Assembly: GCA_012513605.1 (NCBI GenBank)
Contig: JAAZBV010000011.1
Span: 80 to 64,079 of the forward strand
Length of the DNA: 64,000 nt
DNA from: Desulfatiglans sp.
Lineage (GTDB): Bacteria > Desulfobacterota > DSM-4660 > Desulfatiglandales > HGW-15
Reading direction: 5' to 3'
In this document: positions 20,723 through 42,660 of the stretch, piece after piece
How the letters are laid out: every line of letters starts with the position of its first letter
Position numbering within the stretch: the first letter of the stretch is position 1
Made by a program: the position numbers and the translations under genes
Notes under the pieces: model-generated
Seen by the model: only the letters and a program-made list of their open reading frames with translations
What the model was told of the DNA's origin: nothing
Database searches by the model: none

Positions 20723-20760
20723 TTAAAACCTCCATTAATAAAAAATGTACAACGATATAT

Positions 20761-22368: not shown

Positions 22369-22469
22369 AGTTTCCTCCCGTTAGTGTCTGCAAGATATAA
22401 ATAAAAACAGAATATATGATTGAACCTGTTAACGCTCTTTTCTCTCTTTCATAACCTTTAATCACCAGA

Positions 22470-23378
22470 TCAGTCAATGATCCTGGCAACACGGATGCCC
22501 AGGAAGCTTCTGCCCCTTGCATCAGGTGAATATACAAAGGCACGGTTGGCGGACCGCAGTGTCTTTATATCGCTCATAAATGAATTGCCCCTGAATCCGC
22601 GGACATTACAGTTGCCGCTCTTTACCGTTGATCCATCAGCCGGGAGCTTTATCCCGTCAGCCTCATAGCAATCCTCAACCCATTGATAAACATTACCTGC
22701 CATATCGCATAATCCAAATCCGTTTACAGGAAATGAGCATACAGGAGATGTGTTAATCCATAGATCCCTGCCCCCGACAGCGCCTCCCAGTTCATTGTTA
22801 ACCTCTGTGCCAAAATTGGCATATTCGCGGCTGGCTTCATCCCCCCACAGGTATACGGTTGAGGTGCCGGCACGGGCTGCATATTCGTATTCTGCCTCTG
22901 TTAAAAGCCTGTACTGATCCTTGCCTGTTTTTTTATTAAGCCAGCCCACAAACACCTGTGCGTCCCACCAGCTTACGCCTACTACCGGCCTGTTTCCGCG
23001 GCCATAATCAATATACTCCTCTTTTTCAGTTTTGCCCTGTTTTTCTTTCCTGAGCGCTGTCTCCACAGCCTGTCCATCGCACATGGCATCCCGTGCACAT
23101 GCCTCCCATTGATCCCAGGTGATAGGGGCCTTGCTGACAGCAAATGAGTAATTAATGATAACCCGGTGCTGGCCTTCATCCTTTTCGCGGTATTTTTCAC
23201 TCTCAGGAGAGCCCATGATGAATGTGCCAGGAGGAATTATAACCATCTCGGGACACATATCGCAATCCTTAAAGTTTTTTTCGGTTCGACCCTTATCATC
23301 AGATGAGATTGTAAATCCGGTTACAAAGCTCATCACAATCGTCGCTAGTATTATAGCTCCTCTCTTTTGCATCTTCAT
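22470..23378 (-). CDS. Formylglycine-generating-enzyme (SUMF1/EgtB/PvdO) family protein, exported or anchored
   Basis: 'PVVGVSWWDAQVFVGWLNKKTG..YRLLTEAEYEYAARAG', 'GLCDMAGNVYQWVEDCY', 'RGNSF'. Confidence 0.88.
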   Translation of the reverse strand: MKMQKRGAIILATIVMSFVTGFTISSDDKGRTEKNFKDCDMCPEMVIIPPGTFIMGSPESEKYREKDEGQHRVIINYSFAVSKAPITWDQWEACARDAMCDGQAVETALRKEKQGKTEKEEYIDYGRGNRPVVGVSWWDAQVFVGWLNKKTGKDQYRLLTEAEYEYAARAGTSTVYLWGDEASREYANFGTEVNNELGGAVGGRDLWINTSPVCSFPVNGFGLCDMAGNVYQWVEDCYEADGIKLPADGSTVKSGNCNVRGFRGNSFMSDIKTLRSANRAFVYSPDARGRSFLGIRVARIID

Positions 23379-23399
23379 ACCTCCTTTATCCGGCTATAT

Positions 23400-24578
<1,179 letters not shown>

Positions 24579-24708
24579 TTATGGTTTAAAATTGATTAAA
24601 AGATTATTTTTCCCATAGAATTATATTATTGACTCTGTTTTGGCTTTTGTATACCTATATACATTATCTGAAATGAATTGCCTAATAATATATTAAAGGA
24701 ATGATAAA

Positions 24709-26034
24709 ATGCCCAATAATTCAGTAAGTATAAAAGAGGTCCTTGATTCAGGTAAATTTACTTTATATCAGATATGGATATGCACACTGTGTTTTTTGCT
24801 TGCCTTTTTTGACGGGTTTGATCTGTCACTGGTTGGTGTGGCGCTTCCTGATATCAGCGAGTATCTAAATTCAACATCCGCCGCCCTTGGGGTGGCAATG
24901 AGCGCCGGCAATGTTGGAGCGCTTATCGGGGCATTTATCCTGGGCATGATGGCCGATCGTTTTGGCCGCAAAAATATGCTCCTGGTCTCAGCCTTCACAT
25001 TTGGTATTTTTACACTGGCTATCGCCTTTATCCAATCAGTTGAGCAACTGATCTTTCTCCGCTTTATAGCAGGTCTGGGACTGGGAGGAGCCGTTCCAAA
25101 TGCGCTTGCCTTTGGATCAGAGTATGCACCAAGTAAGAAACGGGCAACACTTGCCACTACAATGTATGCCGGGGTTGCCATTGGAGCTACATTTGCCGGT
25201 CTATTTGCCTCTTACTTTCTTCCCAGATTTGGATGGCAGTCTTTATTTTTAGCAGGCGGCACAGTAGCATGCCTCATAGGGATCATTGCATTAATATCCC
25301 TGCCTGAGTCGCTGGAATTTCTGGTCAAAAGAAATACAAACATAGATAAGAGTCGCATACGCAAAATAGTCTCAAGAATCGCCCCATTATATGGAACTGA
25401 TAACAATATTGATTTCGTTTCATCAGAAAAAAGACTTGCCGGTGTACCCTTTAAGCATCTGTTCAAAGACGGGCGTACTGCCAATACAATATTATTATGG
25501 ATGGCCTTTATCTTAAGCTATTATCTGCTCTGGCTGATTCTTTCATGGACACCTACATTGCTCAAAAAAAGCGGGGCCTCCTCCCAGGAATTCAGCCTTG
25601 CCTTTGCGTGCGTTAATATGGGGGCTGTCTTTGCAACGGTATTGATAGGCATTTTGATGGATAAATTCAACCCGTTAAAAATATTAAAAATAGGCTTTTT
25701 TCTTGCATTTATAAGTGTTTTTATTTTTGGATATTTTGCATCCAGCTCATTTATTATAGTTGCTGTTTTCTCGGCCATCATGGGATTCTTTGTAATCGGA
25801 AGCAACTCCGGACTCATGGGGCTCGCTGCTATTTCATACCCGGCAGATATCAGGGGCACAGGGCTCGGGTGGGCCACAGGGGTCGGGAGAGCCGGCTCAC
25901 TGCTGGCGCCTGTTGCAGGAGGTCTTATGCTCACAGGAAACTGGAGCGTTAACTATATCTGTACTACCAATGCCATTCTTGCGCTGGTGGTCATATTGAT
26001 AATTTTTATAATGCAGAAGGTAAATTCAAAATAA
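24709..26034 (+). CDS. MFS transporter, aromatic-acid:H+ symporter (AAHS)-like
   Basis: 12 TMS, 'GMMADRFGRK', and overall resemblance to PcaK/BenK-type carriers. Confidence 0.8.
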   Translation: MPNNSVSIKEVLDSGKFTLYQIWICTLCFLLAFFDGFDLSLVGVALPDISEYLNSTSAALGVAMSAGNVGALIGAFILGMMADRFGRKNMLLVSAFTFGIFTLAIAFIQSVEQLIFLRFIAGLGLGGAVPNALAFGSEYAPSKKRATLATTMYAGVAIGATFAGLFASYFLPRFGWQSLFLAGGTVACLIGIIALISLPESLEFLVKRNTNIDKSRIRKIVSRIAPLYGTDNNIDFVSSEKRLAGVPFKHLFKDGRTANTILLWMAFILSYYLLWLILSWTPTLLKKSGASSQEFSLAFACVNMGAVFATVLIGILMDKFNPLKILKIGFFLAFISVFIFGYFASSSFIIVAVFSAIMGFFVIGSNSGLMGLAAISYPADIRGTGLGWATGVGRAGSLLAPVAGGLMLTGNWSVNYICTTNAILALVVILIIFIMQKVNSK

Positions 26035-26062
26035 ATTTAGTAATTACGTAGGGAGTCAAATA

Positions 26063-27646
26063 ATGAATCATTGTGGTAGCAACAAAAAAGATTTATCGAG
26101 GAGAGATTTTATAAAAACAACTTCAGTCGGCATAGGGGCTGCTGCAATAGCAGGTCTCAATGCTGCCCCTGCAAAAGGTCAGGGTTACGAGAATAAGGTG
26201 AAGTGGGATAAAGAGACCGATGTGCTGATTGCGGGGAGCGGGTTTGCCGGGCTTGCATCTGCAATAACTGCCCATGATGCCGGTGCAAAGGTCATTATTC
26301 TGGAAAAGGCCCCTGAGGAGTATGAGGGCGGCAACAGCAAGGTATCGGGCAACATGTGGTGGACCCCTGAGGATGTGAATGAGGGAATAAAATATATTAC
26401 TGCCCTATGTTACGGCCTCACAGACCAGAAAAGCATAAAGGCACTGGCACAGGGGATGTTTGAAAACAATGAATGGCTCAAAAAACTGGGGGTTGAACCC
26501 ACGCCCCTGGGGATGTTTCAGCCGGAGTACCCGGAACTTCCTGGAGGCGAGACAGTAAGGACATGGGGTAATGGCAGGGGTGTTTTTGGAGGCGCCCTTT
26601 ATCTGCCCGTCAGGAAACAGGTTAAAGACAGGGGTATACCTGTCATGTATCAGACAGCAGCAAAGGAGCTGATTAAAAACGAGAAGGGTGAAATCACTGG
26701 CATAAAGGCAGAGTCATCAGGAATGATAATCAACATTAAGGCAAAGCGCGGCGTTATCCTTGCCTGCGGCGGTTTTGAATTTGCACATGATATGCAGCAG
26801 CAGTTTCTTCCCGGATGGCCCATGTATGGCAGGGGCACCACATACAATACAGGTGATGGTATCAGAATGGCCCAGCAGGCAGGGGCAGACCTCTGGCATA
26901 TGAACAACGCTTTGGCCGGGGTCGGCGCTATCCTGGTGGATGATGAGACGCTTGGAAAAGTCCCGGTTACAGTATCTATGTTCGGAACCCCCTATATACT
27001 TATAGACAGTCAGGGAAAACGCTTTATGAATGAATCTGTCCAGGGCCGCCATGGATTGGGTGAGAAGGAGCACCTTATCTTTTTTGATACCCTGAACACA
27101 CAGAGCTTCACCCGCATACCATGTTATGCAATAATGGATTCAAGGGCGCTTAAAAGAGCTCTTGTGACCACCGGTATGAAATTCGGCTGGTATAACTGGT
27201 ACTCAAAATACAAGTGGAGCCAGGATAACAGCGCTGAAGTAGAAAAAGGGTGGATTATTAAGGGAGATACACTGCAGGAGCTTTCAGGCAAACTCGGTAT
27301 AAAATCCGAGGCACTTGAAAAGACCCTTTCAGCATACAATCAATTCTGCGACGCCGGTGTAGATACAGACTTTGACAGGCCGAAAATGGGGCTGACCAAA
27401 ATTGATCAATCTCCTTATGTTGCGCTCAAGATATATCCTGTTATGTATAACACCCAGGGCGGGCCAAGACGTAATGCATCATGCCAGATTGTTGACCCGT
27501 TTGATACGCCCATACCGAGACTGTTTAGCGCTGGTGAACTGGGGTCATTCTGGGGCTGGATGTACAATGGTGGGGGGAATAATTCAGAGTGTCTCGCAAC
27601 CGGCAGGATCGCGGGGGCAAATGCAGCAGCGCTTAAACCCTGGTAA
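26063..27646 (+). CDS. Tat-exported FAD-dependent oxidoreductase (fumarate-reductase/KstD-type FAD_binding_2 fold)
   Basis: Twin-arginine signal 'SRRDFIKTTSVGIGAAAIAG', dinucleotide fold 'DVLIAGSGFAGLASA', C-terminal 'RLFSAGELG'. Confidence 0.88.
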   Translation: MNHCGSNKKDLSRRDFIKTTSVGIGAAAIAGLNAAPAKGQGYENKVKWDKETDVLIAGSGFAGLASAITAHDAGAKVIILEKAPEEYEGGNSKVSGNMWWTPEDVNEGIKYITALCYGLTDQKSIKALAQGMFENNEWLKKLGVEPTPLGMFQPEYPELPGGETVRTWGNGRGVFGGALYLPVRKQVKDRGIPVMYQTAAKELIKNEKGEITGIKAESSGMIINIKAKRGVILACGGFEFAHDMQQQFLPGWPMYGRGTTYNTGDGIRMAQQAGADLWHMNNALAGVGAILVDDETLGKVPVTVSMFGTPYILIDSQGKRFMNESVQGRHGLGEKEHLIFFDTLNTQSFTRIPCYAIMDSRALKRALVTTGMKFGWYNWYSKYKWSQDNSAEVEKGWIIKGDTLQELSGKLGIKSEALEKTLSAYNQFCDAGVDTDFDRPKMGLTKIDQSPYVALKIYPVMYNTQGGPRRNASCQIVDPFDTPIPRLFSAGELGSFWGWMYNGGGNNSECLATGRIAGANAAALKPW

Positions 27647-27658
27647 CTGAGGTAGTGT

Positions 27659-27687
27659 CCATCCAGAAAGAGATAAATTCTGGATGG
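27659..27687 (+). terminator. Stem-loop after the flavoprotein gene (ccatccagaa-N9-ttctggatgg)
   Basis: 10-bp perfect stem read directly. The trailing T-run is weak. Confidence 0.35.
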
Positions 27688-27892
27688 GGCTTTCAGCAGT
27701 CAGCGATCAGCTGTCAGCTCATTCTTTGGTTTGAAAGTCTTTTGCTAAAAGCTGAACGCTAAGGGATGACCGTTTGAATCAAAAAACGACATTTTTTGGA
27801 TGGACACTGGGTAAGACTTTAAAACACTGTTAATCCGGGATGGTTCACAGTCTGGGAATGCAGATGTATGAATAATCATGTGAGGATCTTTT

Positions 27893-28612
27893 ATGAAAAT
27901 ACGCCGTAATTTTTTTATATTGCCGTCAGGTCTTCTTGTTATAACAACATTTCTCCTGTTTTTTATTACTCCTGCTGGCGCTGACAGTAACGCAAAGAAA
28001 AGTGATACCATAAGTATAGCGCCATACTTTATCCAGGCCACACCAGCCCCAAAGTCCCCTGATCCGGATGGCTTTATACAGCGCTGGCTTCTTCTGGAGC
28101 CGATCATTAAACCGAACAGGAGCAATACTGTATTTACAGACAGCTATGTGAGAGGGGCATTTTACAAGGAGTACTTTCCTAATCAGTTCACTGTGGTTCC
28201 GAAGGGAGAAGAAAGCGTTACAGTTGAAGGCCAGGAGCTTAAATGGCATGCACTTGATTCCACAAACTTCAATGTAAAACTCTTTCGGTTTGCATATGGC
28301 CTTGATAAGCCCCATTACGGGGTCATCTTCTGGGCGGTTACTGTCGTTAACAGCCCCAGGGAGATAAAGAATGTCCGCCTGGCTGTGGGTTCAAATTCCG
28401 CATCCATGTGGTGGCTTAATGGGAAGGAGGCTGTCATCCTGTCCGGTGACAGGCGCATGGTCATGGATGACAGTGTATCAAAGCGGGTTACACTTAATAA
28501 AGGTAAAAACATAATCCGGGGCGCTGTTATCAATGGCCCCGGTATGAGTGATTTCTGCGTGAGATTCATTGATGAAAATGGAGACCCTGTAAAAGACCTT
28601 ACAAGTTTTTAA
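27893..28612 (+). CDS. Secreted protein of unknown function (predicted beta-sandwich)
   Basis: Signal peptide, GAGGA ribosome-binding site, and co-directional with and 17 nt upstream of the GH43 gene. No nameable motif. Confidence 0.7.
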   Translation: MKIRRNFFILPSGLLVITTFLLFFITPAGADSNAKKSDTISIAPYFIQATPAPKSPDPDGFIQRWLLLEPIIKPNRSNTVFTDSYVRGAFYKEYFPNQFTVVPKGEESVTVEGQELKWHALDSTNFNVKLFRFAYGLDKPHYGVIFWAVTVVNSPREIKNVRLAVGSNSASMWWLNGKEAVILSGDRRMVMDDSVSKRVTLNKGKNIIRGAVINGPGMSDFCVRFIDENGDPVKDLTSF

Positions 28613-28628
28613 TTATAGCGGAGATATT

Positions 28629-30080
28629 ATGAAATCCCGAATTCTATCAGCAGTCTTTTCTTTACTATTTTTCCAGATCTTTTCCGGTTCAATATCAGCA
28701 CAGGTGGGAGAACCCTATATTCACGATCCATCCACAATCACAGAGTGTGATGGAAAATACTATACCTTTGGTACAGGCAGCGGAGGCCTGATCTCTGAGG
28801 ATGGATGGATATGGCGCAGGGGGGCAGTGCGTCCGGGCGGGGGTGTAGCACCTGATGTTATACGCATCAATGACCGCTATTATGTGACATATGCAAAAGG
28901 TGGAGGGGGGCTTTCAGGCGGTCACGCCAGCAATGTATATGTAATGTGGTCAAAGACCCTTGATCCGAACTCCCCTGACTTCGAATTCAGGGATGAAACA
29001 ATAGTCGCATCATCTGATGGTGTTGAAGACTGTGACGCCATAGACTCCGCATTCCTTCTTGACCCCACTGACGGCAGGCTCTGGCTTACCTATGGGACAT
29101 ACTTCGGCTTTATCAGAATAATCGAGCTTGATCCAAAAACCGGAAAACGTATGCCAGGTAATGAGCCTGTTAATATTGCAATCGACTGCGAGGCAACAGC
29201 CATGATGTACCGTGACGGCTGGTATTATCTGCTGGGCACACACGGCACCTGCTGCGATGGGCCTAACTCCACATACAACATCCGTGTGGGGCGTTCAAAA
29301 AAGGTAACCGGTCCCTATGTGGATCATATGGGTGTACCAATGCTCAGGGGCGGAGGGAAGCTTGTTGCTGATGCCAGTGAGCCCTATGTTGGGCCTGGTC
29401 ACTTTGGCCTTATAGACCTTGGTGATGGTGTTAATAAATTCTCCTGCCATTATGAGGCGGATCTTATGCGTAGCGGTCACAGTGTGCTGGCTATTCGTCC
29501 CCTTCTATGGAAAGATGGGTGGCCTGTTGAAGGTGAAAATTTGAAGGAGAGCACCTATGAGATACAATCCGAGCGAAGCGGCTATGCGCTTGAACTGGCT
29601 GTGGATTTTGTAAGGATGCCAGGCGGTATGCGTTTTTTTGGGGCTAAAACTGAAGAACCTGCTGCCCCGGTCCCTATCCAGAAACTTACAGATGTGGAAA
29701 AGGGGTGGCCGGATGGCAACATCGAAGTAAGGATGAGTGACTACATGTTCAGACCGCACCAGAAATGGACTGTTACACCTGTACCTGAGGCTGGTGGATA
29801 TTTTGGCTCACCCTATTTCAAAATAACAATCGAAGGCACCAATAGAGCACTGGCAGCAACCGCAGAAAAAGAGGTTGTGACAGTCCCTGAATTTACAGGC
29901 GCACCTGAACAGCTCTGGCAGATTGACCAGTTGACTGATGGTACATATCGAATAATGCCAAAACTTGTACCCGGTTCAGATGAACAGGTGGCGCTCACAG
30001 CAGTGGGAAGGAGTATGCCGTCTCTTGTAAAATTCAACCCGGAGAGCTACATAGGACGCTGGTCTTTTAAAAAATCATGA
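28629..30080 (+). CDS. Secreted GH43-like arabinanase/xylosidase with a C-terminal ricin-type (QxW) lectin-like domain
   Basis: 'IHDPSTITECDGKYYTFGTG' and C-terminal 'EQLWQIDQLTDGTYRI'. Confidence 0.85.
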   Translation: MKSRILSAVFSLLFFQIFSGSISAQVGEPYIHDPSTITECDGKYYTFGTGSGGLISEDGWIWRRGAVRPGGGVAPDVIRINDRYYVTYAKGGGGLSGGHASNVYVMWSKTLDPNSPDFEFRDETIVASSDGVEDCDAIDSAFLLDPTDGRLWLTYGTYFGFIRIIELDPKTGKRMPGNEPVNIAIDCEATAMMYRDGWYYLLGTHGTCCDGPNSTYNIRVGRSKKVTGPYVDHMGVPMLRGGGKLVADASEPYVGPGHFGLIDLGDGVNKFSCHYEADLMRSGHSVLAIRPLLWKDGWPVEGENLKESTYEIQSERSGYALELAVDFVRMPGGMRFFGAKTEEPAAPVPIQKLTDVEKGWPDGNIEVRMSDYMFRPHQKWTVTPVPEAGGYFGSPYFKITIEGTNRALAATAEKEVVTVPEFTGAPEQLWQIDQLTDGTYRIMPKLVPGSDEQVALTAVGRSMPSLVKFNPESYIGRWSFKKS

Positions 30081-30106
30081 TAAAGGATACTCAAGGTCTG
30101 CAATAG

Positions 30107-30988
30107 ATGGAAAATAAAACACTAAAAGAGGACTATTATAAAACAGAAAGGTTATTCGAAAGGGTGTATCGAATCAGCAGCCTTGAAGGAACATTTCTAT
30201 TCCTTTTTCTGGGTGACAGGAAGGCGTTGCTGATGGATACGGCATATGGTTTTGGTAATCTTAAGAAAGCAGTCCGTAAAATTACCGATCTCCCCCTCAT
30301 TATAGTTAACAGTCATGGTCATCTGGATCATGTCTGCGGAAATTTTCAGTTTGATGAGGATATTTATATCCATGCGAGCGACATAGAGCTATGCAAATCG
30401 CATAACTCTACTGAATCCCGCCAAAAAATAGTATTGGGCGCAAAAAGGCTTATGGACTTTTCAAGTGGAAAGACAAGAAATGCTCTTCCTGAGGATTTTT
30501 CAAAGGATCATTATATTCACCAGGGGCATGGTAAACTGGTTCCTCTCACACCTGACCATGTGTTTGATCTGGGAGGTGCGACAATAGCAATGCATGAACT
30601 ACCGGGCCACACCAGAGGAAGCGTTGGGCTGGAATACCGTGAAGAGAGGGCATTATTTCCTTCAGATGCCATTAACCCATTGATGTTTTTGTTCCTGCCT
30701 GAGTCAACTGACCTTGCAACATATAAAAAAACCCTTGGAAAGGCCAACAGCCTCAACATAAACCATATAGTCTTTTCCCATAGTCCGGAGATTACCCCAA
30801 AATCAATACTTGAGGACTTTATAGATTGTGCAGAGCAGGTTGATTATGACAGGGGAGTCCCCTTTGAAGCAAAGGAATTCAGGGAGTTTGCGCCAAGGAT
30901 TTGCACCCGCAGCGGATTTGGGCCGAATGATACAATGAAGCCCGGATTTGCAGCCATTATTATAGATCGATTAAGGTGTAATCATTAG
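30107..30988 (+). CDS. MBL-fold metallo-hydrolase
   Basis: 'NSHGHLDHVCGN' (HxHxDH) and 'LPGHTRGS'. Confidence 0.88.
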   Translation: MENKTLKEDYYKTERLFERVYRISSLEGTFLFLFLGDRKALLMDTAYGFGNLKKAVRKITDLPLIIVNSHGHLDHVCGNFQFDEDIYIHASDIELCKSHNSTESRQKIVLGAKRLMDFSSGKTRNALPEDFSKDHYIHQGHGKLVPLTPDHVFDLGGATIAMHELPGHTRGSVGLEYREERALFPSDAINPLMFLFLPESTDLATYKKTLGKANSLNINHIVFSHSPEITPKSILEDFIDCAEQVDYDRGVPFEAKEFREFAPRICTRSGFGPNDTMKPGFAAIIIDRLRCNH

Positions 30989-31044
30989 ATGCTTATTCAG
31001 TTATTAAACTAAATTGCAGGGAATATATATGGGAGGATGTTCGC

Positions 31045-32688
31045 ATGAATTTTAAATCGTTTTTTGCGAGAAAATTGTATAGCAGAATTACAATTCCATT
31101 TGGGTTAATCTGTCTTATGCTGCTCTTTGTATTTCCTGTTAAAAACAGCCTTGCTGCAGATATAAAAACAAACCTTTCGCAATGTTCGGATATCGCAAAG
31201 CTCGCAGGGCATAACTTTGTAGTTGAAAAGGCGGAGATTGTTCCGGCAGGTCCAATCCCCGGACCGGGAGGCAATGGAGATAAGTTGCCTGAACACTGCC
31301 TTATCCAGGGTATGCTAAATCCCCGGACAGGTGTAAAAGGGCAGAAGTTTGGGATAGGTTTTGAATTGCGTATGCCTGCAAACTGGAACAAGCGGTTCTT
31401 TTTCCAGGGAGGAGGCGGGCTTGATGGTGTACTCTCCCCTGCTACAGGCAGTCATATGGGCGCAATAAAGCCCTCTGCCCTTGCCCGCGGTTTTGCAGTG
31501 GTTTCAACGGACGGGGGACATCGCAGCAGCATGCTCGATGGCACCTTTGGCCTGGATCAGCAGGCGCGTATTGATTACGGCTATAATGCACTGGACAAGG
31601 TCACGCTCAAGGCAAAGGAGCTGATAGAAAAGTATTATGGCGCTGCACCTACCTATTCTTATTTTGTAGGCTGTTCCAATGGCGGCAGGCAGGCACTGAT
31701 GGCATCTCAGCGTTTTCCCCTTTATTTTGACGGGATTGTAGCTGGAGACCCTGCAATAAAATTCTCAGGCATAGCAATGGATCAGATATGGAACGTTCAG
31801 GTGGCAGCCCGGATTGCACCCAAAGATGACAATGGCCGGCCCATAATCTCAAAGGCATTTTCTGATGAAGACTTGCGACTCGTCGCGAACAACCTGCTTA
31901 ATCGTTGTGATGCCCTGGATGGGCTGGCTGACGGTTTTATCAATGACTGGCAGGGCTGCGACTTTGACCCCGGAATCCTCACATGCAAATCGGTTAAAAC
32001 AGGGACATGTCTTACGAAGGCACAGGTAGATGCATTAAGGGATATGTTTAACGGGCCGCGCACGAGTGATGGAAAATCCATATACGGCCCTTTCAACTAT
32101 GATACCGGCATTGGAGGATCAGAATGGAGGGGCATGCATATCGGTTCTTCAGGCACCGGGAAATGGGATTCTGCTGACGCCACACTGGGATTAGTAAATT
32201 TAAGTTATCTTCAATTAACCCCTCCTGATCCTGATCTTGATCCCCTTGAGTTTGATTTTGACCGTGATGCTGTTCGGACTCGCCATACTGCTGCCAATAC
32301 AGATGCTGACTCGACCTTTCTTTCGACCTTTGCAGACCATGGGAAGATGATCGTTTATAACGGACTTTCTGATCAGGGCATGGCATCAGGCGTTCTTTCC
32401 GCCTGGTACGATGAAGTAGTTAAAGTCAATGGCCCGGCTATCCGTGATTCTATAAGGCTCTTCTTTATCCCGGGCATGTGCCACTGCAGCGGGGGAAAAG
32501 CAACAGACCAGTTCAACATGCTTGACGCAATAACAGGCTGGGTGGAAAATGGTAAGGCGCCGGATCGAATCATTGCAACAGGCAAGGCATTTCCCGGTGT
32601 ATCAAGGCCACTTTGCCCCTACCCTCTTGTTGCACGTTATAAGGATGGAGATGTAAACAGCGCAGACAGTTTTGTCTGTTCAAAGTAG
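31045..32688 (+). CDS. Tannase/feruloyl-esterase family alpha/beta hydrolase, secreted
   Basis: Signal peptide and 'YFVGCSNGGRQALM' (G-C-S-x-G-G nucleophile motif of this family). About 550 aa. Confidence 0.88.
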   Translation: MNFKSFFARKLYSRITIPFGLICLMLLFVFPVKNSLAADIKTNLSQCSDIAKLAGHNFVVEKAEIVPAGPIPGPGGNGDKLPEHCLIQGMLNPRTGVKGQKFGIGFELRMPANWNKRFFFQGGGGLDGVLSPATGSHMGAIKPSALARGFAVVSTDGGHRSSMLDGTFGLDQQARIDYGYNALDKVTLKAKELIEKYYGAAPTYSYFVGCSNGGRQALMASQRFPLYFDGIVAGDPAIKFSGIAMDQIWNVQVAARIAPKDDNGRPIISKAFSDEDLRLVANNLLNRCDALDGLADGFINDWQGCDFDPGILTCKSVKTGTCLTKAQVDALRDMFNGPRTSDGKSIYGPFNYDTGIGGSEWRGMHIGSSGTGKWDSADATLGLVNLSYLQLTPPDPDLDPLEFDFDRDAVRTRHTAANTDADSTFLSTFADHGKMIVYNGLSDQGMASGVLSAWYDEVVKVNGPAIRDSIRLFFIPGMCHCSGGKATDQFNMLDAITGWVENGKAPDRIIATGKAFPGVSRPLCPYPLVARYKDGDVNSADSFVCSK

Positions 32689-32714
32689 CGGCAAAATTTA
32701 AGGAGAATTAGAAC

Positions 32715-34073
32715 GTGGAAAAAAAAATACCCGGCCTGCTTGTACACACTTACGGTTTTTCACACCTGACCTTTTCATTGATGATGAGCTTTGCGCTTCA
32801 GTATTACACCATTTTTTTAACCGATGTGGCCCTGATTAAATTATCAATTATCCCTGTTATCTTTTTTATAACCCATGTTGTTGATGCCATTTCAATCCCT
32901 GTTTCGGGCGCCCTGATACAGAGCACCCAGTTTCGTTGGGGCCAGTACCGGTCATGGCTGCTGTTTATGCCTCTCGCAACCTCGGTTTTTTTTACACTTA
33001 CATTTACAAATCTGCCGGTGATCTATGGAATTAAAATAGTCTATCTGAGCCTGGCATATATGATAGCCCATGTGAGTCTTAATTTTGCATATAATGCCCA
33101 GCTTGGCCTGATATCAGTAGTGGCGAAAAGTGTTAAAGACAGGATGCGGATGTCAGCCAGGAATGTACAGTATGGCATGTCCAGCCAGATTATCTACAGC
33201 TATTTTGTTTTAAGTATGTTTTATCGCTTCACTGAAAAAAGCGAATCATGGGGATACTTCTACACTGTTGGAATCCTGGCTGTTATTCAGGTATTCGGCT
33301 ACTGGTTTCTTTTTTACCAGATAAAAGATTACGATAAATATAATCCGGCAAAAATCCTGTCAACCAGGATGTCTCTTAAAGAGATGGTGCAGCAGGTTAT
33401 TGGAAATAAGCACCTTCGGACTTTAATGTCTGCGGATATTGTATCCTATCTGGGTATCTTCAGCCTCCAGACAGTTGCAGTGTACTATTTCAAATATGTA
33501 ATAGAAAATGAACAGTATATGAAACCCTATTCTCTCTCACTCGCCATTGCAAGTTTTACCAGCACGCTGATTGGGCCGGCGGTATTAAGGGTATTAGGCA
33601 AGAAAAACACATACCTTTTTGCCTCAATCTGGGGAACAGCAGGCTATATAGTTCTGCGTCTTTTTGGCCTGTCAGGCCCATATGTTTATATTGCAATTAT
33701 AGTTATATCGGCACTTGGCGCCGGAACCAACGGCCCTATACGCCAGGCAATGTATATGGATGCTGCTGAATATGGTTTTTATAAAACGGGTAAGGATGCG
33801 AGCGCCTTCATAATGTCGATGTTTACTCTGCCTATAAAAATTGCTATAGCAATTGCCGGGACTATTGTAACCGCGGGGCTGGATTTTATCGGTTTTGTCC
33901 CGAATACTGCACAAACCGAACAATTTATAAGTAACCTGATGAATCTCATATGCTATCTTCCGGCCGGTGCATGTCTTATGGCCTTTGTGATAATCTCTTT
34001 TTATTCACTTTCTGATAATAAAGTTACTGAGATTATGGAGATAAATGCGGTAAAAAGGGCCGAAGCCAGATAA
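32715..34073 (+). CDS. MFS/GPH-family glycoside-pentoside-hexuronide:cation symporter-like transporter
   Basis: 12 TMS. GTG start with AAGGAGA 8 nt upstream. Confidence 0.8.
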   Translation: MEKKIPGLLVHTYGFSHLTFSLMMSFALQYYTIFLTDVALIKLSIIPVIFFITHVVDAISIPVSGALIQSTQFRWGQYRSWLLFMPLATSVFFTLTFTNLPVIYGIKIVYLSLAYMIAHVSLNFAYNAQLGLISVVAKSVKDRMRMSARNVQYGMSSQIIYSYFVLSMFYRFTEKSESWGYFYTVGILAVIQVFGYWFLFYQIKDYDKYNPAKILSTRMSLKEMVQQVIGNKHLRTLMSADIVSYLGIFSLQTVAVYYFKYVIENEQYMKPYSLSLAIASFTSTLIGPAVLRVLGKKNTYLFASIWGTAGYIVLRLFGLSGPYVYIAIIVISALGAGTNGPIRQAMYMDAAEYGFYKTGKDASAFIMSMFTLPIKIAIAIAGTIVTAGLDFIGFVPNTAQTEQFISNLMNLICYLPAGACLMAFVIISFYSLSDNKVTEIMEINAVKRAEAR

Positions 34074-34104
34074 TTTTTTTTAATAGTACAAAGGAGATGA
34101 TCTC

Positions 34105-35013
34105 ATGAGAAAAAACACTAACCGAATCTTAACTTTAACATTAACCATTTTACTGGCTATTATTCTTACTCATCCTGCCTATACGCAGGATGCTGCGCCA
34201 CAACCCAAACCCAAAATGGAGTTTAATCCATTCCAGATGGATTCACGCGCAAAGGAGATCGCCTATAACTTCAAGGATGCCAATAAAGAACTCAAATACT
34301 GCCTGTTTGTTTCATCAAAGGTAGATAAAGAGAAAAAGGCCCCTCTCATTGTTACGCTTCATGGTCTAGGCGCAGGCCCATCAATCATGATGAATAAACA
34401 GGCTGTTGACCTGGCAGAGGAAGGGGGCTACATCCTTGTGGCGCCCATGGGATATAATGAAAGGGGTTGGTACGGTGTACCTTTCAGCATCCCCGCGGGC
34501 AAGACTCCGCCAAAACCCGCCCCTTCAAATGAGGGTGCAACTGCCAAACCGGCACCAAAGCCCTCTCTGTTTTTTGATCCGAATGATCCGCCAAACCTGC
34601 ATGAGTTGAGTGAAAAGGATGTAATGAATGTTCTGGATATGGTACGTAAAGAGTATAAAATTGATGAGAACCGGATTTACCTGATGGGCCATTCCATGGG
34701 CGGGGCCGGGACACTTTACCTTGGGAGCAAGTATGCGGATATCTGGGCTGCAATAGCGCCCATTGCCCCGGCAGCCTTTGGCATTGAGCCTGATATACTG
34801 GAAAAAATAAAAAGCATGCCGGTAATTTTTGTACACGGCGCTACTGATGAAGTAGTACCAATAGACATCTCCAGGAGATGGGTTGAAAAGGCAAAGTCAT
34901 TGAACATGACATATGAATTCAAGGAAATGGAGGGTGTAACCCACGGGCCGGTTATAACCGCTGCACTTCCGGCTGTATATGAGTTTTTTGGTAAACACTC
35001 AAAATCGAAATAA
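34105..35013 (+). CDS. Secreted alpha/beta esterase (paralogue of the N-terminal half of 18830-20722)
   Basis: 'LMGHSMGGAGTL' and 'KAPLIVTLHG'. The Pro/Ala/Lys-rich insert 'PAGKTPPKPAPSNEGATAKPAPKPS' sits at the same position as in the paralogue. Confidence 0.88.
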   Translation: MRKNTNRILTLTLTILLAIILTHPAYTQDAAPQPKPKMEFNPFQMDSRAKEIAYNFKDANKELKYCLFVSSKVDKEKKAPLIVTLHGLGAGPSIMMNKQAVDLAEEGGYILVAPMGYNERGWYGVPFSIPAGKTPPKPAPSNEGATAKPAPKPSLFFDPNDPPNLHELSEKDVMNVLDMVRKEYKIDENRIYLMGHSMGGAGTLYLGSKYADIWAAIAPIAPAAFGIEPDILEKIKSMPVIFVHGATDEVVPIDISRRWVEKAKSLNMTYEFKEMEGVTHGPVITAALPAVYEFFGKHSKSK

Positions 35014-35183
35014 TCTATTTTTAAAGGTAATGTTTATGCAGGGTGTAATCAGTTATCATAATACCGCCTGCATAAACGGTCTCTTTTAACTATACAATCT
35101 ACAGGATACAGGTATATAATCTTTTTTATTTTTTGAGTAATGTTACTCATTTTTTTGTTCACCTGTCTGAATAGGAGTAGCAA

Positions 35184-36959
35184 ATGAAACACCGATTAAT
35201 TTATACTATCTTAACAATTTTATTTTCATTCATGATTACATCTTCTCTAATCTACGCTGAAGAAGGAAAGATAGTAGTAATGAACCCGAGGGGCATCCAG
35301 CCTGAGATCCGCAAGATCCCCATGGCAAAACGGCCTGCAACACTGGACAACAAAACAGTTTATATTGTGGATACAAAATATCCCAACACAAAGCCCTTTG
35401 TTGAAGAACTCTATACTGCATTAAAAACAAAATACCCAAAAACCACATGGGTACTTAAGGAAAAGTTCGGCGGGTACATGGATGATGACCCTGCTTTATG
35501 GAAGGAGATCAAGGCAAAAGCCCAGGGGGCCATTGTACTTGTCGGGCATTGAAGCAGCTGCTCTCCGGCAGTTGTCGGTCATGCAGTAACCATTGAAAGA
35601 ACAGGCGTGCCAGCAATCCCCATGATTACCAGCCGGTTTCAGGAGTTGGCATCCACTACAGCATTTAAAAAAGGCATACCAAACCTGCGTATAGTCTATA
35701 CACCTCACCCCATAACAGACCGGCCTGCGGAATTATGCAGGGAATATATTGCGGGTAATAACCCTTTATCAAATAAACCCATGCTAGATGAGATATACTC
35801 AGGCCTTGTTACCCCCCTTTCAGCTATCGATGCCAAAGCTGGTTTTCTTGAGAGAGAGGCCAGGCCAAGGCTGTTTCCTGCGGATACAGCTGAAAACCTT
35901 ATGGAGTTTTTCTACAATCAGGGTTACACAGATGGAAACCCGATCATCCTTCCAACTGAAGATAAGGTTAAGGAGATGCTCAGCGCAACAAGCCATCAGC
36001 CAGATGAATGGGTTGGCCAGATGAGGCCTTCTCCTCCTCATGAGGCATGGTACTATACAGTTGAGATGGTTGCAGTCAATGCGGTAATGGCAGGCGCTAA
36101 ACCTGAATACTTCCCGGTTATTTTGGCAATAGCCTCTAAAGGCGCAACATCAATGATCAGCTCCACATCATCCTTTGCCAGGATGGTGGTGGTAAACGGC
36201 CCTGTTGTGAAAGAGATAGGCATGAATTCGGGGATAGGCGCTATGGGGCCTTTTAACAGGGCTAACTCAACAATAGGAAGAAGCTGGACACTTATCTCAA
36301 AAAATCTTGGAAATTCCGGAAAGCCGGGCGAGACATACCTGGGCAGCCAGGGGAACCAGCTTAATTTTAATAATATCTGTTTCCCGGAAAATGAAGAAGG
36401 ACTTCCAAAAGGATGGGAACCGCTGCATGTACAGAAAGGGTTTGAAAAATCAGAGAGCGTTGTAAGCCTCTTCAGCGGATGGAGTTTAAATGACATAGCA
36501 TGGTATTCACCCCTTCCCCAGCATGAGGTCATAAGGGGATGGCTTGAGCATTTCTTTTCTTTTGGCGTTACCCAGGCGACACTTATCCTTGACCCCATTG
36601 TTGCAGCCGATGTAGCCTCAAAGGGATATAATACCAAAACGGTCTTTGCAAAATACCTTGCAGAAAAAACAGGAACCCCTGGCTGGCTCTACTGGTCAGA
36701 AAACAGGGACAACCTTAAAAAGGCTCAGGATGGCATAGAACCCTTTGCCGGGTGGCTTAAAAGGGGAGAGGATGCAGTTGTGCCTGTTTCACGCTATATG
36801 GGCAGGAGAATGGGCGGGTCTGGCCTGCTTGCCACAACTGAAAACAATGAATCCATAACTTCCATACATATAGTGGTCACTGGCGGCGGGACAAATACCT
36901 TCTGGTCTGGCGGTGATTTTGGCTATATAGGAAGCTCATCAGTGGATTTCTGGAGATAG
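35184..36959 (+). CDS. Candidate selenoprotein. It consists of a signal peptide, a UxxC (UGSC-like) redox module and a ~400-aa uncharacterised domain, read through TGA 35550-35552.
   Basis: Track ORFs 35184..35552 and 35607..36959 are in the same frame. Codon-by-codon reading shows the only stop between them is TGA at 35550-35552: ...AIVLVGH-TGA-SSCSPAVVGHAVTIERTGVPAIP... A stem-loop lies at 35555-35574. AGGAG ribosome-binding site upstream of 35184. Confidence 0.6.
35555..35574 (+). promoter_or_regulatory. Candidate SECIS-like hairpin immediately 3' of the in-frame TGA
   Basis: cagctgc (35555-35561) pairs with gcagttg (35568-35574) for 7 bp including one G-U, with loop tctccg. It starts 3 nt after the TGA, which is closer than in the E. 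coli fdhF model. Confidence 0.35.
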
Positions 36960-36968
36960 GAGGCAAAA

Positions 36969-37544
36969 ATGAAAATCAAAATATCTACAATATTAGCTGT
37001 CTCTGTTTTATTGGGGCTGATAGTTGCGCCAGGGAGCGCCCTTGCACAGTTTAATTCATCAAAAAACCCTGCCCCCATTGGGTCGCCGGTAAAAGACATG
37101 GTTGAGCTGGGGTCTGTATATTCAAACATATATGACATTACCATCACGGTTCTTGAAACTGTGAGGGGTAATGGTGCGATGGTACTCCTTAAAAAGGCTG
37201 ACTCAAATGTTAAACAACCATCCAAAGGATTTGAGTATATTCTTGCGAAGGTAAGGTTTGAGATGAAGGCAAGGGCTGTATCAGACAAATTAACCATTAA
37301 CATAGGCGACTCACCTCTTCAGTGGATTGCCCTGACATCGGAGCTGCTCGAATACACCGGTATTTCAGTAACAGTACCTGATCCTGCATTAAAGGGCACT
37401 GTGAAACCCGGTGAAAAACTTGAAGGTTGGGTGGCATTTGCTGTAGATAAAAAAGACAAGGGGCCAATAATGGTGTTTGACCCTGATACTGGTGGCGCAA
37501 CAGGCCGTGGAAAGACCGTGTTCTTTAAGCTCTTTAAGGATTGA
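36969..37544 (+). CDS. Secreted DUF4352-like (Ig-like) protein
   Basis: Signal peptide and GGAGG ribosome-binding site, 9 nt after the preceding stop. 'GEKLEGWVAFAVDKK' is typical of the DUF4352 C-terminal strands. Confidence 0.75.
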   Translation: MKIKISTILAVSVLLGLIVAPGSALAQFNSSKNPAPIGSPVKDMVELGSVYSNIYDITITVLETVRGNGAMVLLKKADSNVKQPSKGFEYILAKVRFEMKARAVSDKLTINIGDSPLQWIALTSELLEYTGISVTVPDPALKGTVKPGEKLEGWVAFAVDKKDKGPIMVFDPDTGGATGRGKTVFFKLFKD

Positions 37545-37548
37545 TAAA

Positions 37549-37727
37549 TGCAGGGGCAGACCTGCTGGCCGCGCCAAAGCTTCTCCGGCCATCATAGCCT
37601 TAGGGAAGGTGGTTAGCGACGGCGGGCGTGTCTACCCTGATTCATGTTTTATTAATGTAGGGGCAACCCCCTGTGGTTGCCCTGGCTCATTTATATTAAT
37701 GTAGAGGCGGACCGGCGTGTCCGCCCT
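37549..37727. repeat. Cluster of GC-rich hairpin repeats (gtaggggcRRac...gtYYgccc family)
   Basis: 37549-37575 'tgcaggggcagacctgctggccgcgcc', 37618-37639, 37657-37683 'gtaggggcaaccccctgtggttgccct', 37701-37727 'gtagaggcggaccggcgtgtccgccct'. Confidence 0.8.
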
Positions 37728-37957
37728 GTTTTTTGATTTTCTCTTGTTCCCATGGTCCCCGTGGGAACATTATTTTTAACGCTCTGCGTTAACTTTCAAA
37801 GTTGATATCCCGTAATCTTGTCACATTGTAGTCTTTGAATATTGAGGGATAAGTCGGGGAATCCACCACGACAACTTCATTCCCACACATGTGGTAATCC
37901 AAACGCAGACGTCATTCCCTCGAAGGAGGGAATCCATTTTCATCTTCGTCGATTTCT

Positions 37958-38359
37958 CTACTTTGCCCAGTTTTCAACCTTTAATGATTTAATCCTTAGA
38001 AATTCTTTTTCATTATTTGTGACCAATATCAAATCCTTACTTAGAGCATGTGCAGCAATAAGCATATCAAGAGGGCCAATTATTTTACCCTGTGATTCAA
38101 GCTCAGTGCGAATTATTCCATAATATTTTGATGCAGCCTCGTCATATGGCAGGATTTCAAATGGGGTGAGAAATTCTTCAAGTCGTTGAGCATTCTGTTT
38201 TTTGTTATTGCTTTTTGCAACACCATAATTTAGTTCGGATACAGTGATAGTCGATATACCGATTTTCCCAACTTCTGTATTTTTAAATTTTTGAATTACT
38301 TTAAAGGGTTTTTGATTCATTAGATAAATACAGATATTGGTATCAATCAAATAGATCAT
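37958..38359 (-). CDS. vapC: PIN-domain toxin VapC
   Basis: '[12 protein letters not shown]', 'LVTNNEKEF'. Overlaps vapB. Confidence 0.92.
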
Positions 38360-40441: not shown

Positions 40442-41938
40442 ATGAATCAGATACTCATAGGAAAAGGCGAGCAGCAGGTACACCTTTTATCAAAGTATGG
40501 TAACCGCCACGGGCTTATTGCAGGGGCCACAGGCACGGGTAAGACTATCTCTCTTCTTCTTCTTGCCGAAGGGTTTTCACGCATGGGTGTGCCTGTATTT
40601 ATCTCTGATGTTAAAGGCGATGTAGCTGGCATTGCAGCGCCAGGCGCCATGAACGATAAGATACAGCAGAGGATCACCCAGATAGGCATTGAGGGGTATG
40701 TAAACGAACCATCCCCCTCTGTATTCTGGGATATTTATGGCAAATTGGGCCATCCTGTGCGTGTAACCATAAGTGAGATGGGGCCTGCCCTCTTAAGCCG
40801 GATACTTGAGCTGAACGATACCCAATCCGGAACCCTGGAGGTTGTCTTTAAGCTTGCAGATGAACAGGGGCTGCTTCTGCTTGACCTTAATGATTTCAGG
40901 GCCATCCTTGGCTTTATTTCCGAGAAGAGCAAGGAGGTGTCAGCGCAGTATGGCCTTGTGAGTAAACAGTCGATTGCAGCCATACAGCGTTCCCTGCTCG
41001 CCTTTGAGCGGGAAGGTGGCAACCAGATGTTCGGTGAGCCTGCACTTGATTTGACTGACATTATGCGGACTGATCTTTCGGGCAAAGGTATTATAAACAT
41101 ACTTGCCGCTGATCAGCTCATCCTGAAACCAAGGCTTTACTCCAGTTTTCTTTTGTGGCTTTTATCCGAGTTATTCGAGAATCTGCCAGAGGTGGGTGAT
41201 CTTGATAAACCCAGGCTTGTATTTTTCTTTGATGAGGCGCACCTACTGTTTGATGATGCACCTACAATTCTCCGCCAGCGTGTGGAACAGGTTGTAAGGC
41301 TTATCCGCTCAAAGGGTGTTGGCATCTACTTCTGTTCACAGCTCCCTGATGACCTGCCGGGTGAGATACTTGGCCAGATGGGTAACCGCATTCAGCATGC
41401 GCTTCGCGCCTTTACACCACGCGACCAGAAGGCAGTGAAAACCGCAGCAGAGACCTTTGCAGTTAATCCCAAGCTGGATGTAGCCTCAGTAATATCAACA
41501 CTTGGTGTGGGCGAGGCACTGGTATCTACCCTTCAGGAAAAAGGTGTACCCATGCCTGTAGAGAAAACAATCATATGTCCGCCACGATGCAGGATGGGGA
41601 CTATAACACCTGATGAGCGGGCTGCAATACGCATGAGAAGCCCTATCGGGATGAAATATGATACCCCCCTGGATCGTGAATCAGCCTATGAGATACTGAA
41701 TAGGCGGGCGCTTGAAAAGACCGAAAAATCAGAGATCAGAAAAAAAGAGGCCAAGTCGGAGAAACCGGCTGAGAAGGGGCAGGGGATGCTCGGCAATATC
41801 CTGTGGGGCACAGGCAGGCGGCAGGGCATGGTTGAAACAATGGCCAAACAGACCGTACGCACTGTAGGGAGCCAGCTAGGAAGGCAGATCGTGCGGGGCA
41901 TACTTGGAGGGATATTCGGGGGAAAAGTGGGCAGGTAA
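40442..41938 (+). CDS. DUF853/HerA-like P-loop ATPase (E. coli YjgR-type, 498 aa)
   Basis: Walker A 'IAGATGTGKT', Walker B 'LVFFFDEAHLL', basic Gly-rich C-terminal tail. AAGGAGG ribosome-binding site. Confidence 0.85.
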   Translation: MNQILIGKGEQQVHLLSKYGNRHGLIAGATGTGKTISLLLLAEGFSRMGVPVFISDVKGDVAGIAAPGAMNDKIQQRITQIGIEGYVNEPSPSVFWDIYGKLGHPVRVTISEMGPALLSRILELNDTQSGTLEVVFKLADEQGLLLLDLNDFRAILGFISEKSKEVSAQYGLVSKQSIAAIQRSLLAFEREGGNQMFGEPALDLTDIMRTDLSGKGIINILAADQLILKPRLYSSFLLWLLSELFENLPEVGDLDKPRLVFFFDEAHLLFDDAPTILRQRVEQVVRLIRSKGVGIYFCSQLPDDLPGEILGQMGNRIQHALRAFTPRDQKAVKTAAETFAVNPKLDVASVISTLGVGEALVSTLQEKGVPMPVEKTIICPPRCRMGTITPDERAAIRMRSPIGMKYDTPLDRESAYEILNRRALEKTEKSEIRKKEAKSEKPAEKGQGMLGNILWGTGRRQGMVETMAKQTVRTVGSQLGRQIVRGILGGIFGGKVGR

Positions 41939-42144: not shown

Positions 42145-42660
42145 TTACGGAACCTTGTATTCCAGACCATGACAGCCACCGCAATAATTTTCCGATTTTT
42201 TATGCTGATGATGGCACTTGTTGCAGTCAGGAATCTTTCCGTCATGGGGAGAGTAATGGGGATTTATCGGGAGCCCTTTTGTTGCTTCAAGCAGGGCCTG
42301 AGGATCATTATGACATGTCTGGCACATACTTGAGTCCACAATCGTTTTGGGCTCAGTGTTTTCATGACAATCTTTGCATGTCAACCCGTTGAGCTGATGC
42401 TTATGGCTCAAAGGCATTTTCGTGCTCAGGCTTAGCTGCCCTTTAGAATGACATGAATCACAACCCTTTCCGGTCATTTTAGCTGTATCAACATGCCCCT
42501 GGGGTAAAACATCCTTTTCCTTATGGCAGACTTTACAATCACCAGGTCCAGGTTTAGCAGGAGCCTTTACAGCTACAGCGTTATCCAGCTCCTTTACGCC
42601 GCAGGAAAGAAAAAACAACAGACACAGGCCGGTAAGACATAATATGGTGTATTTGTGCAT
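42145..42660 (-). CDS. Exported hexahaem c-type cytochrome
   Basis: Six CxxCH motifs (CKVCH, CDSCH, CKDCH, CQTCH, CNKCH, CGGCH) in 171 aa. N-terminal signal, possibly a lipoprotein ('FFLSC'). Confidence 0.9.
   Translation of the reverse strand: MHKYTILCLTGLCLLFFLSCGVKELDNAVAVKAPAKPGPGDCKVCHKEKDVLPQGHVDTAKMTGKGCDSCHSKGQLSLSTKMPLSHKHQLNGLTCKDCHENTEPKTIVDSSMCQTCHNDPQALLEATKGLPINPHYSPHDGKIPDCNKCHHQHKKSENYCGGCHGLEYKVP

Follow-up and report, generated by a model that had tools for sequence, protein, structure and literature searches.

A 64-kb stretch of DNA from Desulfatiglans sp. (contig JAAZBV010000011.1; called the window below, with all positions, strands and coordinates in its own numbering) carries at positions 35184-36959 of the plus strand what we take, with high confidence, to be one gene decoded with selenocysteine (Sec). 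As judged from sequence, the UGA at codon 123 is shown by comparison with related loci to be read as Sec. We also consider it likely, if with slightly less assurance, that the product is a 591-residue exported selenoprotein; the function proposed for it below is tentative. The novelty lies in a large clade of strictly Sec-containing proteins with a signal peptide, the motif U-S-S-C, a fixed secreted partner and uniformly mistaken annotation, as well as in the demonstration that the domain fused to its redox module has no detectable relative.

One reading frame across an in-frame TGA

The features of the gene are these.

35184..36959, plus strand: complete selenoprotein coding sequence, 591 residues and stop, with Sec as codon 123; supported by the single frame, the domain spanning the TGA, the conserved TGA and contiguous Cys homologues
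35550..35552, plus strand: the UGA for Sec, residue 123; 46 close and 4 distant loci have TGA here, and homologues P0134, P0146, P0137 and P0156 have Cys
35559..35561, plus strand: TGC, Cys126, presumed resolving Cys of U-S-S-C; invariant in the close clade (44/44)
35557..35587, plus strand: hairpin resembling a selenocysteine insertion sequence (SECIS); lower stem 35557-35561/35583-35587, upper stem 35565-35569/35574-35578, tetraloop 35570-35573; RNAalifold consensus
35277..35744, plus strand: UGSC domain, residues 32-187; PF24696, E 1e-29, 104.3 bits against a cut-off of 25
35871..36956, plus strand: uncharacterised C-terminal domain of ~360 residues (~residues 230-591), from alignments and AlphaFold models
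35184..35258, plus strand: signal-peptide-like leader MKHRLIYTILTILFSFMITSSLIYA; character conserved in ~40 loci, sequence variable

The open reading frames (ORFs) 35184..35552 (122 codons) and 35607..36959 (450 codons, with a GTG 'start') share one frame. Translation of 35184-36959 gives 592 codons, that is, 591 sense codons and the terminal stop, and the TGA at 35550-35552 is the sole internal stop, exactly as a preliminary description of the locus had stated. The TGA stands in the context ...KAQGAIVLVGH-(TGA)-SSCSPAVVGHAVTIERTGVPAIPMITSRF..., and the peptide spanning the Sec site would read AIVLVGH-U-SSCSPAVVGHAVTIER. The 54 nt from the TGA to the GTG at 35607 are open and had been described as looking like coding sequence; their translation is indeed near-invariant across 46 related loci. 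No ribosome-binding site (RBS) was found in the sequence ahead of 35607. In a scan of the whole window, no second case in which one TGA joins two long open segments was credible.

The UGSC domain, a resemblance to whose family had previously been suggested, lies on both sides of the stop. In a Pfam search run with the TGA replaced by Cys, the match to PF24696 runs across codon 123 and covers profile positions 2-157 of 172. It passes the gathering threshold, and 42 of 47 diverse family members match the same profile.

Public databases hold the two halves separately. A full-length query against 5.8 billion proteins returned 6,736 matches and a query with the N-terminal ORF returned 734; the best 120 of each were examined. 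The former are all 424-459 amino acids (aa) long and cover only the part after the TGA; the latter are nearly all 121-123 aa long (range 106-161), those with a name being mostly called 'hypothetical protein'. Among the matches listed there is no read-through form: all 240 best matches to the two halves are truncated, which is the splitting by standard gene callers that had been predicted. The downstream-half ORFs in the databases begin at differing Met or Val codons (MGVPAIP.., VTLERIGVPAIP.., MITSRF.., MRITYTP..), so that this half has no conserved independent start, and such scatter is what a gene caller forced to choose a start after a stop would produce. An exhaustive HMMER comparison of the downstream ORF with 1.84 billion cluster representatives gave 3,731 related clusters. 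The search for continuous homologues and for Cys aligned with the TGA, proposed earlier as a check, was successful on both counts: there are contiguous homologues of 545-570 aa, in which the match to the downstream ORF begins near residue 124, and the Sec column is occupied by Cys within CxxC in P0134 (GHCSTCAP), P0146 (GHCSTCSP), P0137 (GSCPGCTP) and P0156 (GGCSTCCP). P0253 also has Cys at the UGA-aligned column.

These data bear on whether the locus could instead contain two genes, the TGA being a true stop that ends a 122-aa product and an independent gene starting at GTG 35607 or a nearby ATG. All entries of the clade among the matches listed are annotated in this split form, and some bacterial selenoprotein mRNAs do also give a truncated product. 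However, one Pfam domain crosses the stop, the 54 nt between stop and 'start' are conserved as coding sequence, contiguous Cys homologues exist, and in the AlphaFold model of the Cys form the two sides of the motif pack into a single alpha/beta domain with a predicted local distance difference test score (pLDDT) >90. Nor do homologues that end at 'VGH' come with an independent downstream gene: the predicted starts of the downstream half are inconsistent among homologues, and that at 35607 has no RBS. We therefore regard two genes as very improbable.

Selenocysteine decoding and its proposed signal

We compared 53 genomic loci encoding relatives of the predicted selenoprotein. The closest belong to a Deltaproteobacteria metagenome-assembled genome (MAG; 93%) and to Desulfatiglans/Desulfatiglandales MAGs (85-92%), and many Acidobacteriota MAGs follow at 66-78%; the chromosome OY761556.1 has five copies. 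The TGA is at the identical column in all 46 close loci, within GH-(TGA)-SSCSP and rarely (TGA)-SRC or (TGA)-SSCA, and in each of these the upstream continuation of the matching frame passes the TGA and takes in the conserved N-terminal half with a hydrophobic leader. The TGA is also present in four distant loci, namely those of a gammaproteobacterium (G-(TGA)-DGC), an acidobacterium (D-(TGA)-GSC) and two Chloroflexi (W-(TGA)-SNA and W-(TGA)-SGA). Retention in 100% of 46 close and 4 distant loci is far beyond chance. Across 44 non-identical homologous sequences the amino acids are conserved on both sides of the TGA and synonymous sites vary freely, which argues that both halves are translated. 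The constant TGA column, the conserved flanks and the Cys homologues together support the proposal, already made in the preliminary description, of a single polypeptide with Sec in a U-x-x-C arrangement.

Close to the TGA this synonymous freedom is lost. From codon -1 to +11 synonymous variation collapses: Pro+5 is CCG and Val+8 is GTC in 44/44 sequences, and the six-fold degenerate Ser+1 and Ser+2 are encoded by AGC or AGT only. For four- and six-fold codons with an amino acid conserved in at least 90% of sequences, mean codon entropy is 0.54 bits inside the block (+1 to +11) and 1.72 bits outside it (Mann-Whitney p = 2e-6). RNAalifold, applied to the constrained block, predicts a consensus hairpin with two helices separated by an internal loop, and 96% of cells are standard pairs. 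The tetraloop, at +21 to +24, conforms to RGUY (AGUU in the window, GGUC in most homologues), and its invariant G-U is 22-23 nt from the U of the UGA. The element thus has the properties by which a SECIS is recognised: a hairpin 3' of the UGA with an apical loop ~16-37 nt away and a conserved G or G-U. In the four distant loci the stem sequences are unlike, and each has a G-U-containing loop at +21 to +26 (CGUGA, AGUU, AGUU and GGU); different stems with G-U loops lend the consensus hairpin independent support.

The SECIS of E. coli fdhF is a hairpin directly 3' of the UGA with a GGUC tetraloop at +22 to +25, and the fdhF sequence gave that loop position when folded. Its GGUC loop, with G-U 22-24 nt from the U of the UGA, resembles that of most homologues, which have GGUC and G-U at +22/+23. 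Unlike in fdhF, no bulged U is evident here, the window's loop is AGUU, and the stems are unrelated in sequence. By analogy with other bacterial selenoprotein mRNAs, in which such a hairpin recruits the SelB complex, the hairpin 7-38 nt downstream of the UGA would present its tetraloop G-U and so bring SelB-GTP-Sec-tRNA(Sec) to the ribosome. Rfam gave nothing at gathering thresholds in the whole window and nothing relevant around the TGA at E <=10; it appears to have no general bacterial SECIS model.

A stem-loop directly after the TGA had been noted before (~35554-35575). It is the minimum-energy fold of the window sequence, but it is not the conserved element, which is the overlapping hairpin 35557-35587. 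The earlier stem-loop has an A.C mismatch in 33 of 42 homologues and is compatible in only 89.9% of cells, and its loop, ~14-17 nt from the UGA, has no G.

Alternatively, the UGA might stand for one of the standard amino acids (Trp, Cys or Gly), either because the genetic code is reassigned or because a near-cognate or suppressor tRNA decodes it. In favour of this, Sec insertion is deduced here by comparison, and the Sec machinery is not seen in the window. We consider such decoding most unlikely. TGA is the ordinary stop of ~10 other well-supported ORFs of the window, including the GH43 and FGE-sulfatase-like genes with their complete Pfam domains, and the organism's code therefore does not use TGA as a sense codon. 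Moreover, the synonymous constraint is localised, the accompanying hairpin lies as far from the UGA as a SECIS canonically does, relatives have the Cys of a CxxC motif at the aligned position, and the family is well established as one of selenoproteins (PMC2398784, PMC13188914). The TGA could also have arisen through faulty sequencing or assembly, or through a recent mutation of a Cys codon that made the gene a pseudogene; either would take a single base change (TGC or TGT to TGA), in a window that probably stems from a metagenome assembly. This explanation is effectively refuted: the same TGA recurs in 50 loci that are independent of each other and stem from different studies and phyla, and there is purifying selection on both of its sides.

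Two further observations concern the related loci. In two Acidobacteriota MAGs (L045:9980-11360 and L046:10140-11361; tblastn E 1e-99 to 1e-116) the downstream part is in two overlapping ORFs; these breaks are probably assembly indel errors rather than real pseudogenes. In L008 (12051-13763), as well as in L004, L007, L009, L010, L041, L044, L049 and L052, a second, tandem paralogue directly follows the partner gene described below. It consists of an ORF of ~135 aa ending in ..ALVGD, a TGA, GSCTKYLVYNG.. and an ORF of ~413 aa, and its motif is the true U-G-S-C. A hairpin of canonical SECIS type is predicted inconsistently, for some copies and not for others. The window has no second copy.

The protein, its relatives and its possible function

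In ~40 loci the leader follows one pattern: M-K-x-K/R, 15-18 hydrophobic residues and small residues, then the invariant mature start ..KIVVMNPRG. It has two basic residues at the front, a hydrophobic core with a mean Kyte-Doolittle value of 2.3-3.5 (2.1-3.6 over the best 12 residues) and no twin-arginine motif. The N-terminal signal peptide suggested in the preliminary description (MKHRLIYTILTILFSFMITSSLIYA/EE) is in keeping with this conserved character, and the protein is probably exported to the periplasm by a Sec-type signal peptide (Sec here denoting the secretion pathway). Chloroflexi forms and actinomycete Cys forms have no leader.

The UGSC family (Zhang and Gladyshev; PF24696; NF041046) shares with the window protein a homologous domain that has Sec at the same position of U-x-x-C and continues into a ...GIP/GVP...V... 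segment. UGSC selenoproteins were found in Sargasso Sea and Global Ocean Sampling (GOS) data, rank among the most abundant marine and freshwater selenoprotein families (255 Sec and 21 Cys forms in GOS) and have been without an assigned function since 2005-2008 (PMC2398784, PMC1976440, PMC13188914). The prototype, with ~147 aa and the motif U-G-S-C, stands alone and is cytoplasmic, whereas the window protein has 591 aa, a signal peptide, an extra domain of ~360 aa and the motif U-S-S-C, that is, a U/C-x-x-C redox motif with Ser as second residue where the prototype has Gly. With 74.1 bits it stays below the cut-off (125) of the NCBIfam equivalog NF041046, UGSC_fam, and so do all fusion members tested, P0134 included.

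Structures were modelled with AlphaFold for the window's downstream ORF (49-sequence alignment; pLDDT 90.5, predicted template-modelling score (pTM) 0.90) and for P0134, a full-length Cys homologue standing for the read-through protein (pLDDT 93.0, pTM 0.92). The UGSC region of the P0134 model repeats a beta-alpha order, five strands alternating with helices, and CxxC is between strand 100-106 and helix 111-124. Its top 50 Foldseek matches in the PDB are SIS, flavodoxin, periplasmic-binding and Rossmann-like alpha/beta domains, generic three-layer matches that are all weak (E >=0.005). The thioredoxin fold suggested as likely for UGSC in 2008 (PMC2398784) is not among these 50 and is thus not supported; with matches this weak, the result speaks to fold class only. 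Homology to glycine reductase selenoprotein B (GrdB/PrdB, TIGR01917) was rejected as well (E 0.049, 12.5 bits against a cut-off of 602, and no match in 46 of 47 relatives). A PDB sequence search with the UGSC half returned noise only.

The fused domain, put at ~400 aa in the preliminary description and left unassigned there, has kept that status. Neither the window protein nor any of 47 diverse relatives has a Pfam or NCBIfam match in the C-terminal domain; the profile of this domain matches no PDB sequence, and the best Foldseek match in the PDB has E 0.17 and TM <=0.18; fumarate hydratase and 'Toblerone-fold' hydrolases, which appeared at this level, were treated as noise. Its conserved motifs are TDG.PI.LPTE, VE.VAVNAVMAG, VNGP, AN..IGR, ENEE, HV..G and a C-terminal D.WR. 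The near-invariant residues are polar or acidic and not Cys: ~D250, T258, E259, E294, N338, N361, R366, E402, E404 and H415 (approximate, in full-length numbering). In other proteins the domain stands behind AhpC/TSA-thioredoxin-like modules (P0256 with CATC, P0236 with CPTT), an arrangement which suggests thiol/selenol redox chemistry. The domain forms a large, confidently modelled family, and its repeated fusions to redox modules give a concrete hypothesis for that chemistry.

Some relatives (P0184, P0244) have the C-terminal domain as tandem duplicates with no redox module, and one such case is within a secreted protein of 1,226 aa. The Cys of 'NAVMAGC(R/K)PEY', common in distant Cys-form, motif-less and thioredoxin (Trx)-fused members, is Ala throughout the Sec clade of the window.

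The domain family is already known, and the architecture probably is too. A UGSC/Unknown_1 fusion selenoprotein was reported in 2008 from the GOS metagenome (PMC2398784, Fig. S1A), and, as here, it has a UGSC selenoprotein module and a conserved domain of unknown function in one chain. The paper stresses a conserved Cys in Unknown_1, and the candidate position (NAVMAG-C in distant relatives) is Ala here. The same two-domain architecture is found in P0134, a Pseudonocardia sp. protein of 560 aa (RefSeq WP_358488424.1, 'UGSC family (seleno)protein'), which has ~40% identity to the window protein over the C-terminal domain and whose GH-C-STC aligns to GH-U-SSC. Unlike the window protein, it is a Cys form with no signal peptide and no DUF4352-like partner, and its gene lies between two thioredoxin-reductase (TrxR)-like flavoprotein genes (~310 aa) in an Opp/Dpp-type ABC transporter operon. 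The architecture, previously called unusual, is less so than that implied, given the UGSC fusion of 2008 (PMC2398784) and the 560-aa Cys form in RefSeq. The case is unlikely to surprise a selenoprotein specialist; it offers a useful annotation and an intriguing orphan domain.

Exported bacterial selenoproteins include periplasmic formate dehydrogenase and [NiFeSe] hydrogenase subunits, as well as predicted DsbA-like proteins. The DsbA-like selenoproteins are listed in PMC2398784. All use Sec outside the cytoplasm, as the window protein is predicted to do. The exported metalloenzymes are exported by the twin-arginine translocation (Tat) pathway and bear cofactors, whereas the window protein has a Sec-type leader with no twin-arginine and no recognisable cofactor domain. 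Extracytoplasmic selenol/thiol proteins with no metal cofactor are rare, and a strictly Sec-containing clade with a signal peptide and a fixed partner makes the role of selenium in the anaerobe periplasm amenable to study.

We propose the following mechanism. A cleavable Sec-type signal peptide, recognisable by its sequence character, would send the protein to the periplasm. There the UGSC-family alpha/beta domain would hold the redox pair Sec123-x-x-Cys126 at a strand-to-helix junction, and the C-terminal domain of ~360 residues, in which acidic, His, Asn and Arg residues form an invariant cluster, would bind a substrate or act on it. In the reaction Sec123 would serve as nucleophile; the intermediate would then be resolved by Cys126, giving a selenenylsulfide to be re-reduced afterwards. 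The selenoprotein may work with, or be co-secreted with, a small beta-sandwich-like protein encoded directly downstream. Our tentative suggestion for its function is that of a periplasmic selenol/thiol oxidoreductase with a substrate-handling C-terminal domain; the Trx-like fusions and the TrxR-like neighbours of the Pseudonocardia Cys form support thiol-redox coupling.

Several observations weigh against reading the gene as one for an exported selenoprotein that acts in this way. As to the RNA, the stems barely vary within the close clade and covariation is weak, with double changes at 2 pairs, and shuffled sequence folds with as good an energy as the window sequence does (z = 0.07), so that the support for the element comes from conservation and not from thermodynamics. 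The 64-kb window has no tRNA genes, and no selA, selB or selD was seen within it. Gene contexts differ between lineages. As to the motif, P0122 (GHMDTLGP), P0124 (GHTVTSAS), P0129 and P0140 have neither Cys nor Sec, and in the two Chloroflexi MAG loci (L050:9947 and L051:9947) the TGA is followed by S-N-A or S-G-A, with no resolving Cys; a Sec form of this kind would be unable to form an intramolecular selenenylsulfide at the usual spacing. These Chloroflexi forms have no signal peptide, yet a clear hairpin with an AGUU loop. The motif-less members and the Chloroflexi forms imply that the redox pair is not essential in every member.

A further question is whether the C-terminal domain is the real enzyme and U-x-x-C not catalytic, the UGSC module being a regulatory redox switch or a structural remnant. 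Several relatives do keep a UGSC-like fold with no Cys or Sec at the motif, and what is invariant in the C-terminal domain is not Cys but acidic residues, His, Asn and Arg. On the other hand, the upkeep of costly Sec decoding in two phyla argues that the residue is needed, and the same domain recruits unrelated CxxC modules and, in the actinomycete, is flanked by TrxR-like genes. We find this explanation rather unlikely, if the best of the alternatives considered.

Going beyond the oxidoreductase function proposed above, the C-terminal domain could be a new enzyme fold which, with obligatory and interchangeable thiol/selenol modules and the downstream partner, makes up an unrecognised periplasmic selenoenzyme system of anaerobes, possibly one that reduces plant-derived breakdown products. 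This is speculative, and we consider it less likely still. If true, a widespread domain (3,731 clusters at 50% identity), unannotated and with no structural relative detectable by Foldseek, would work with UGSC-Sec, UGSC-Cys and AhpC/Trx-like modules in turn, and its substrates might be the aromatic or hemicellulose products freed by the feruloyl/tannase esterases and GH43 protein encoded nearby. For annotation, a single rule (UGSC N-terminal half, TGA, SSC, hairpin) would mend the split entries and so add to the selenoproteins known from Desulfatiglans-like bacteria and Acidobacteriota.

Operon and genomic neighbourhood

The selenoprotein gene and its downstream neighbour appear to form a two-gene unit with the following elements.

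35091..35120, plus strand: candidate sigma-70-like promoter of the two-gene operon, TATACA-18-TATAAT; identified by consensus match (10/12)
35134..35149, plus strand: perfect palindrome TGAGTAA-TG-TTACTCA, a possible operator; lies downstream of the promoter-like site and ahead of the RBS, and occurs once in the window
35173..35177, plus strand: Shine-Dalgarno sequence AGGAG, 6 nt before ATG 35184; GGAG-type motifs precede the equivalent ATG in most related loci
36969..37544, plus strand: partner gene, whose 191-aa product is secreted, free of Cys and DUF4352-like; begins 9 nt beyond the stop of the selenoprotein gene and has its own GGAGG
37706..37769, plus strand: pair of hairpins (37706-37725 and 37745-37769) that resemble terminators, at the end of the operon

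The promoter-like site and the terminator-like hairpins bracket the two genes. The partner protein has its own signal peptide by sequence, and its gene is directly downstream of the selenoprotein gene in 44 related loci, with 53-90% identity. The preliminary description had proposed co-operonic arrangement with a secreted DUF4352-like protein; the adjacency is well borne out by these loci, but the DUF4352 (PF11611) match is sub-threshold, at 21.0 bits over residues 138-174 only against a gathering threshold of 25.9, and is a lead rather than an assignment. The palindrome was also considered as a conserved operator and rejected in that role: it is common only to the nearest relative, L005, and the chance expectation is 0.29 at <=2 mismatches. 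It may be a lineage-specific operator or a product of chance; the case for the former is weak.

Upstream, an esterase-rich locus (18830-35013) encodes a BD-FAE/alpha-beta-hydrolase, a PF00756 esterase, a tannase/feruloyl esterase and another alpha/beta-hydrolase. Also within it are a GH43 protein with a ricin-B lectin domain, a metallo-beta-lactamase-fold protein, an FGE-sulfatase-like protein, three major facilitator superfamily (MFS) transporters and a FAD_binding_2 flavoprotein with a Tat signal (26063-27646). The locus probably handles the side chains of plant polymers. The gene had been placed at the end of an esterase/GH43 locus, and those genes are present upstream; the selenoprotein operon follows an esterase-rich locus in the window and in its nearest relatives, and in 5-10 loci, some of them from Acidobacteriota, the gene again has tannase, alpha/beta-hydrolase, MFS and GH43 genes in its vicinity. 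Since the operon seems to be equipped with a promoter and a terminator of its own, we regard this association as no more than suggestive.

An acidobacterial Sec form adjoins hyp genes. On a JGI metagenome contig (L058:3571-13102), the genes of two motif-less members (566 and 582 aa) are interspersed with those of two glycyl-radical enzymes and a radical-SAM activase, a setting quite unlike that of the Sec clade. Downstream of the operon in the window, on the minus strand, are a PIN-domain gene (37958-38359) and a DUF6768 and ECF-sigma pair (38917-39306/39299-39862) overlapping by 8 nt. Further on lie genes for a HerA-like ATPase (40442-41938) and a small multihaem protein resembling cytochrome c3 (42145-42660).

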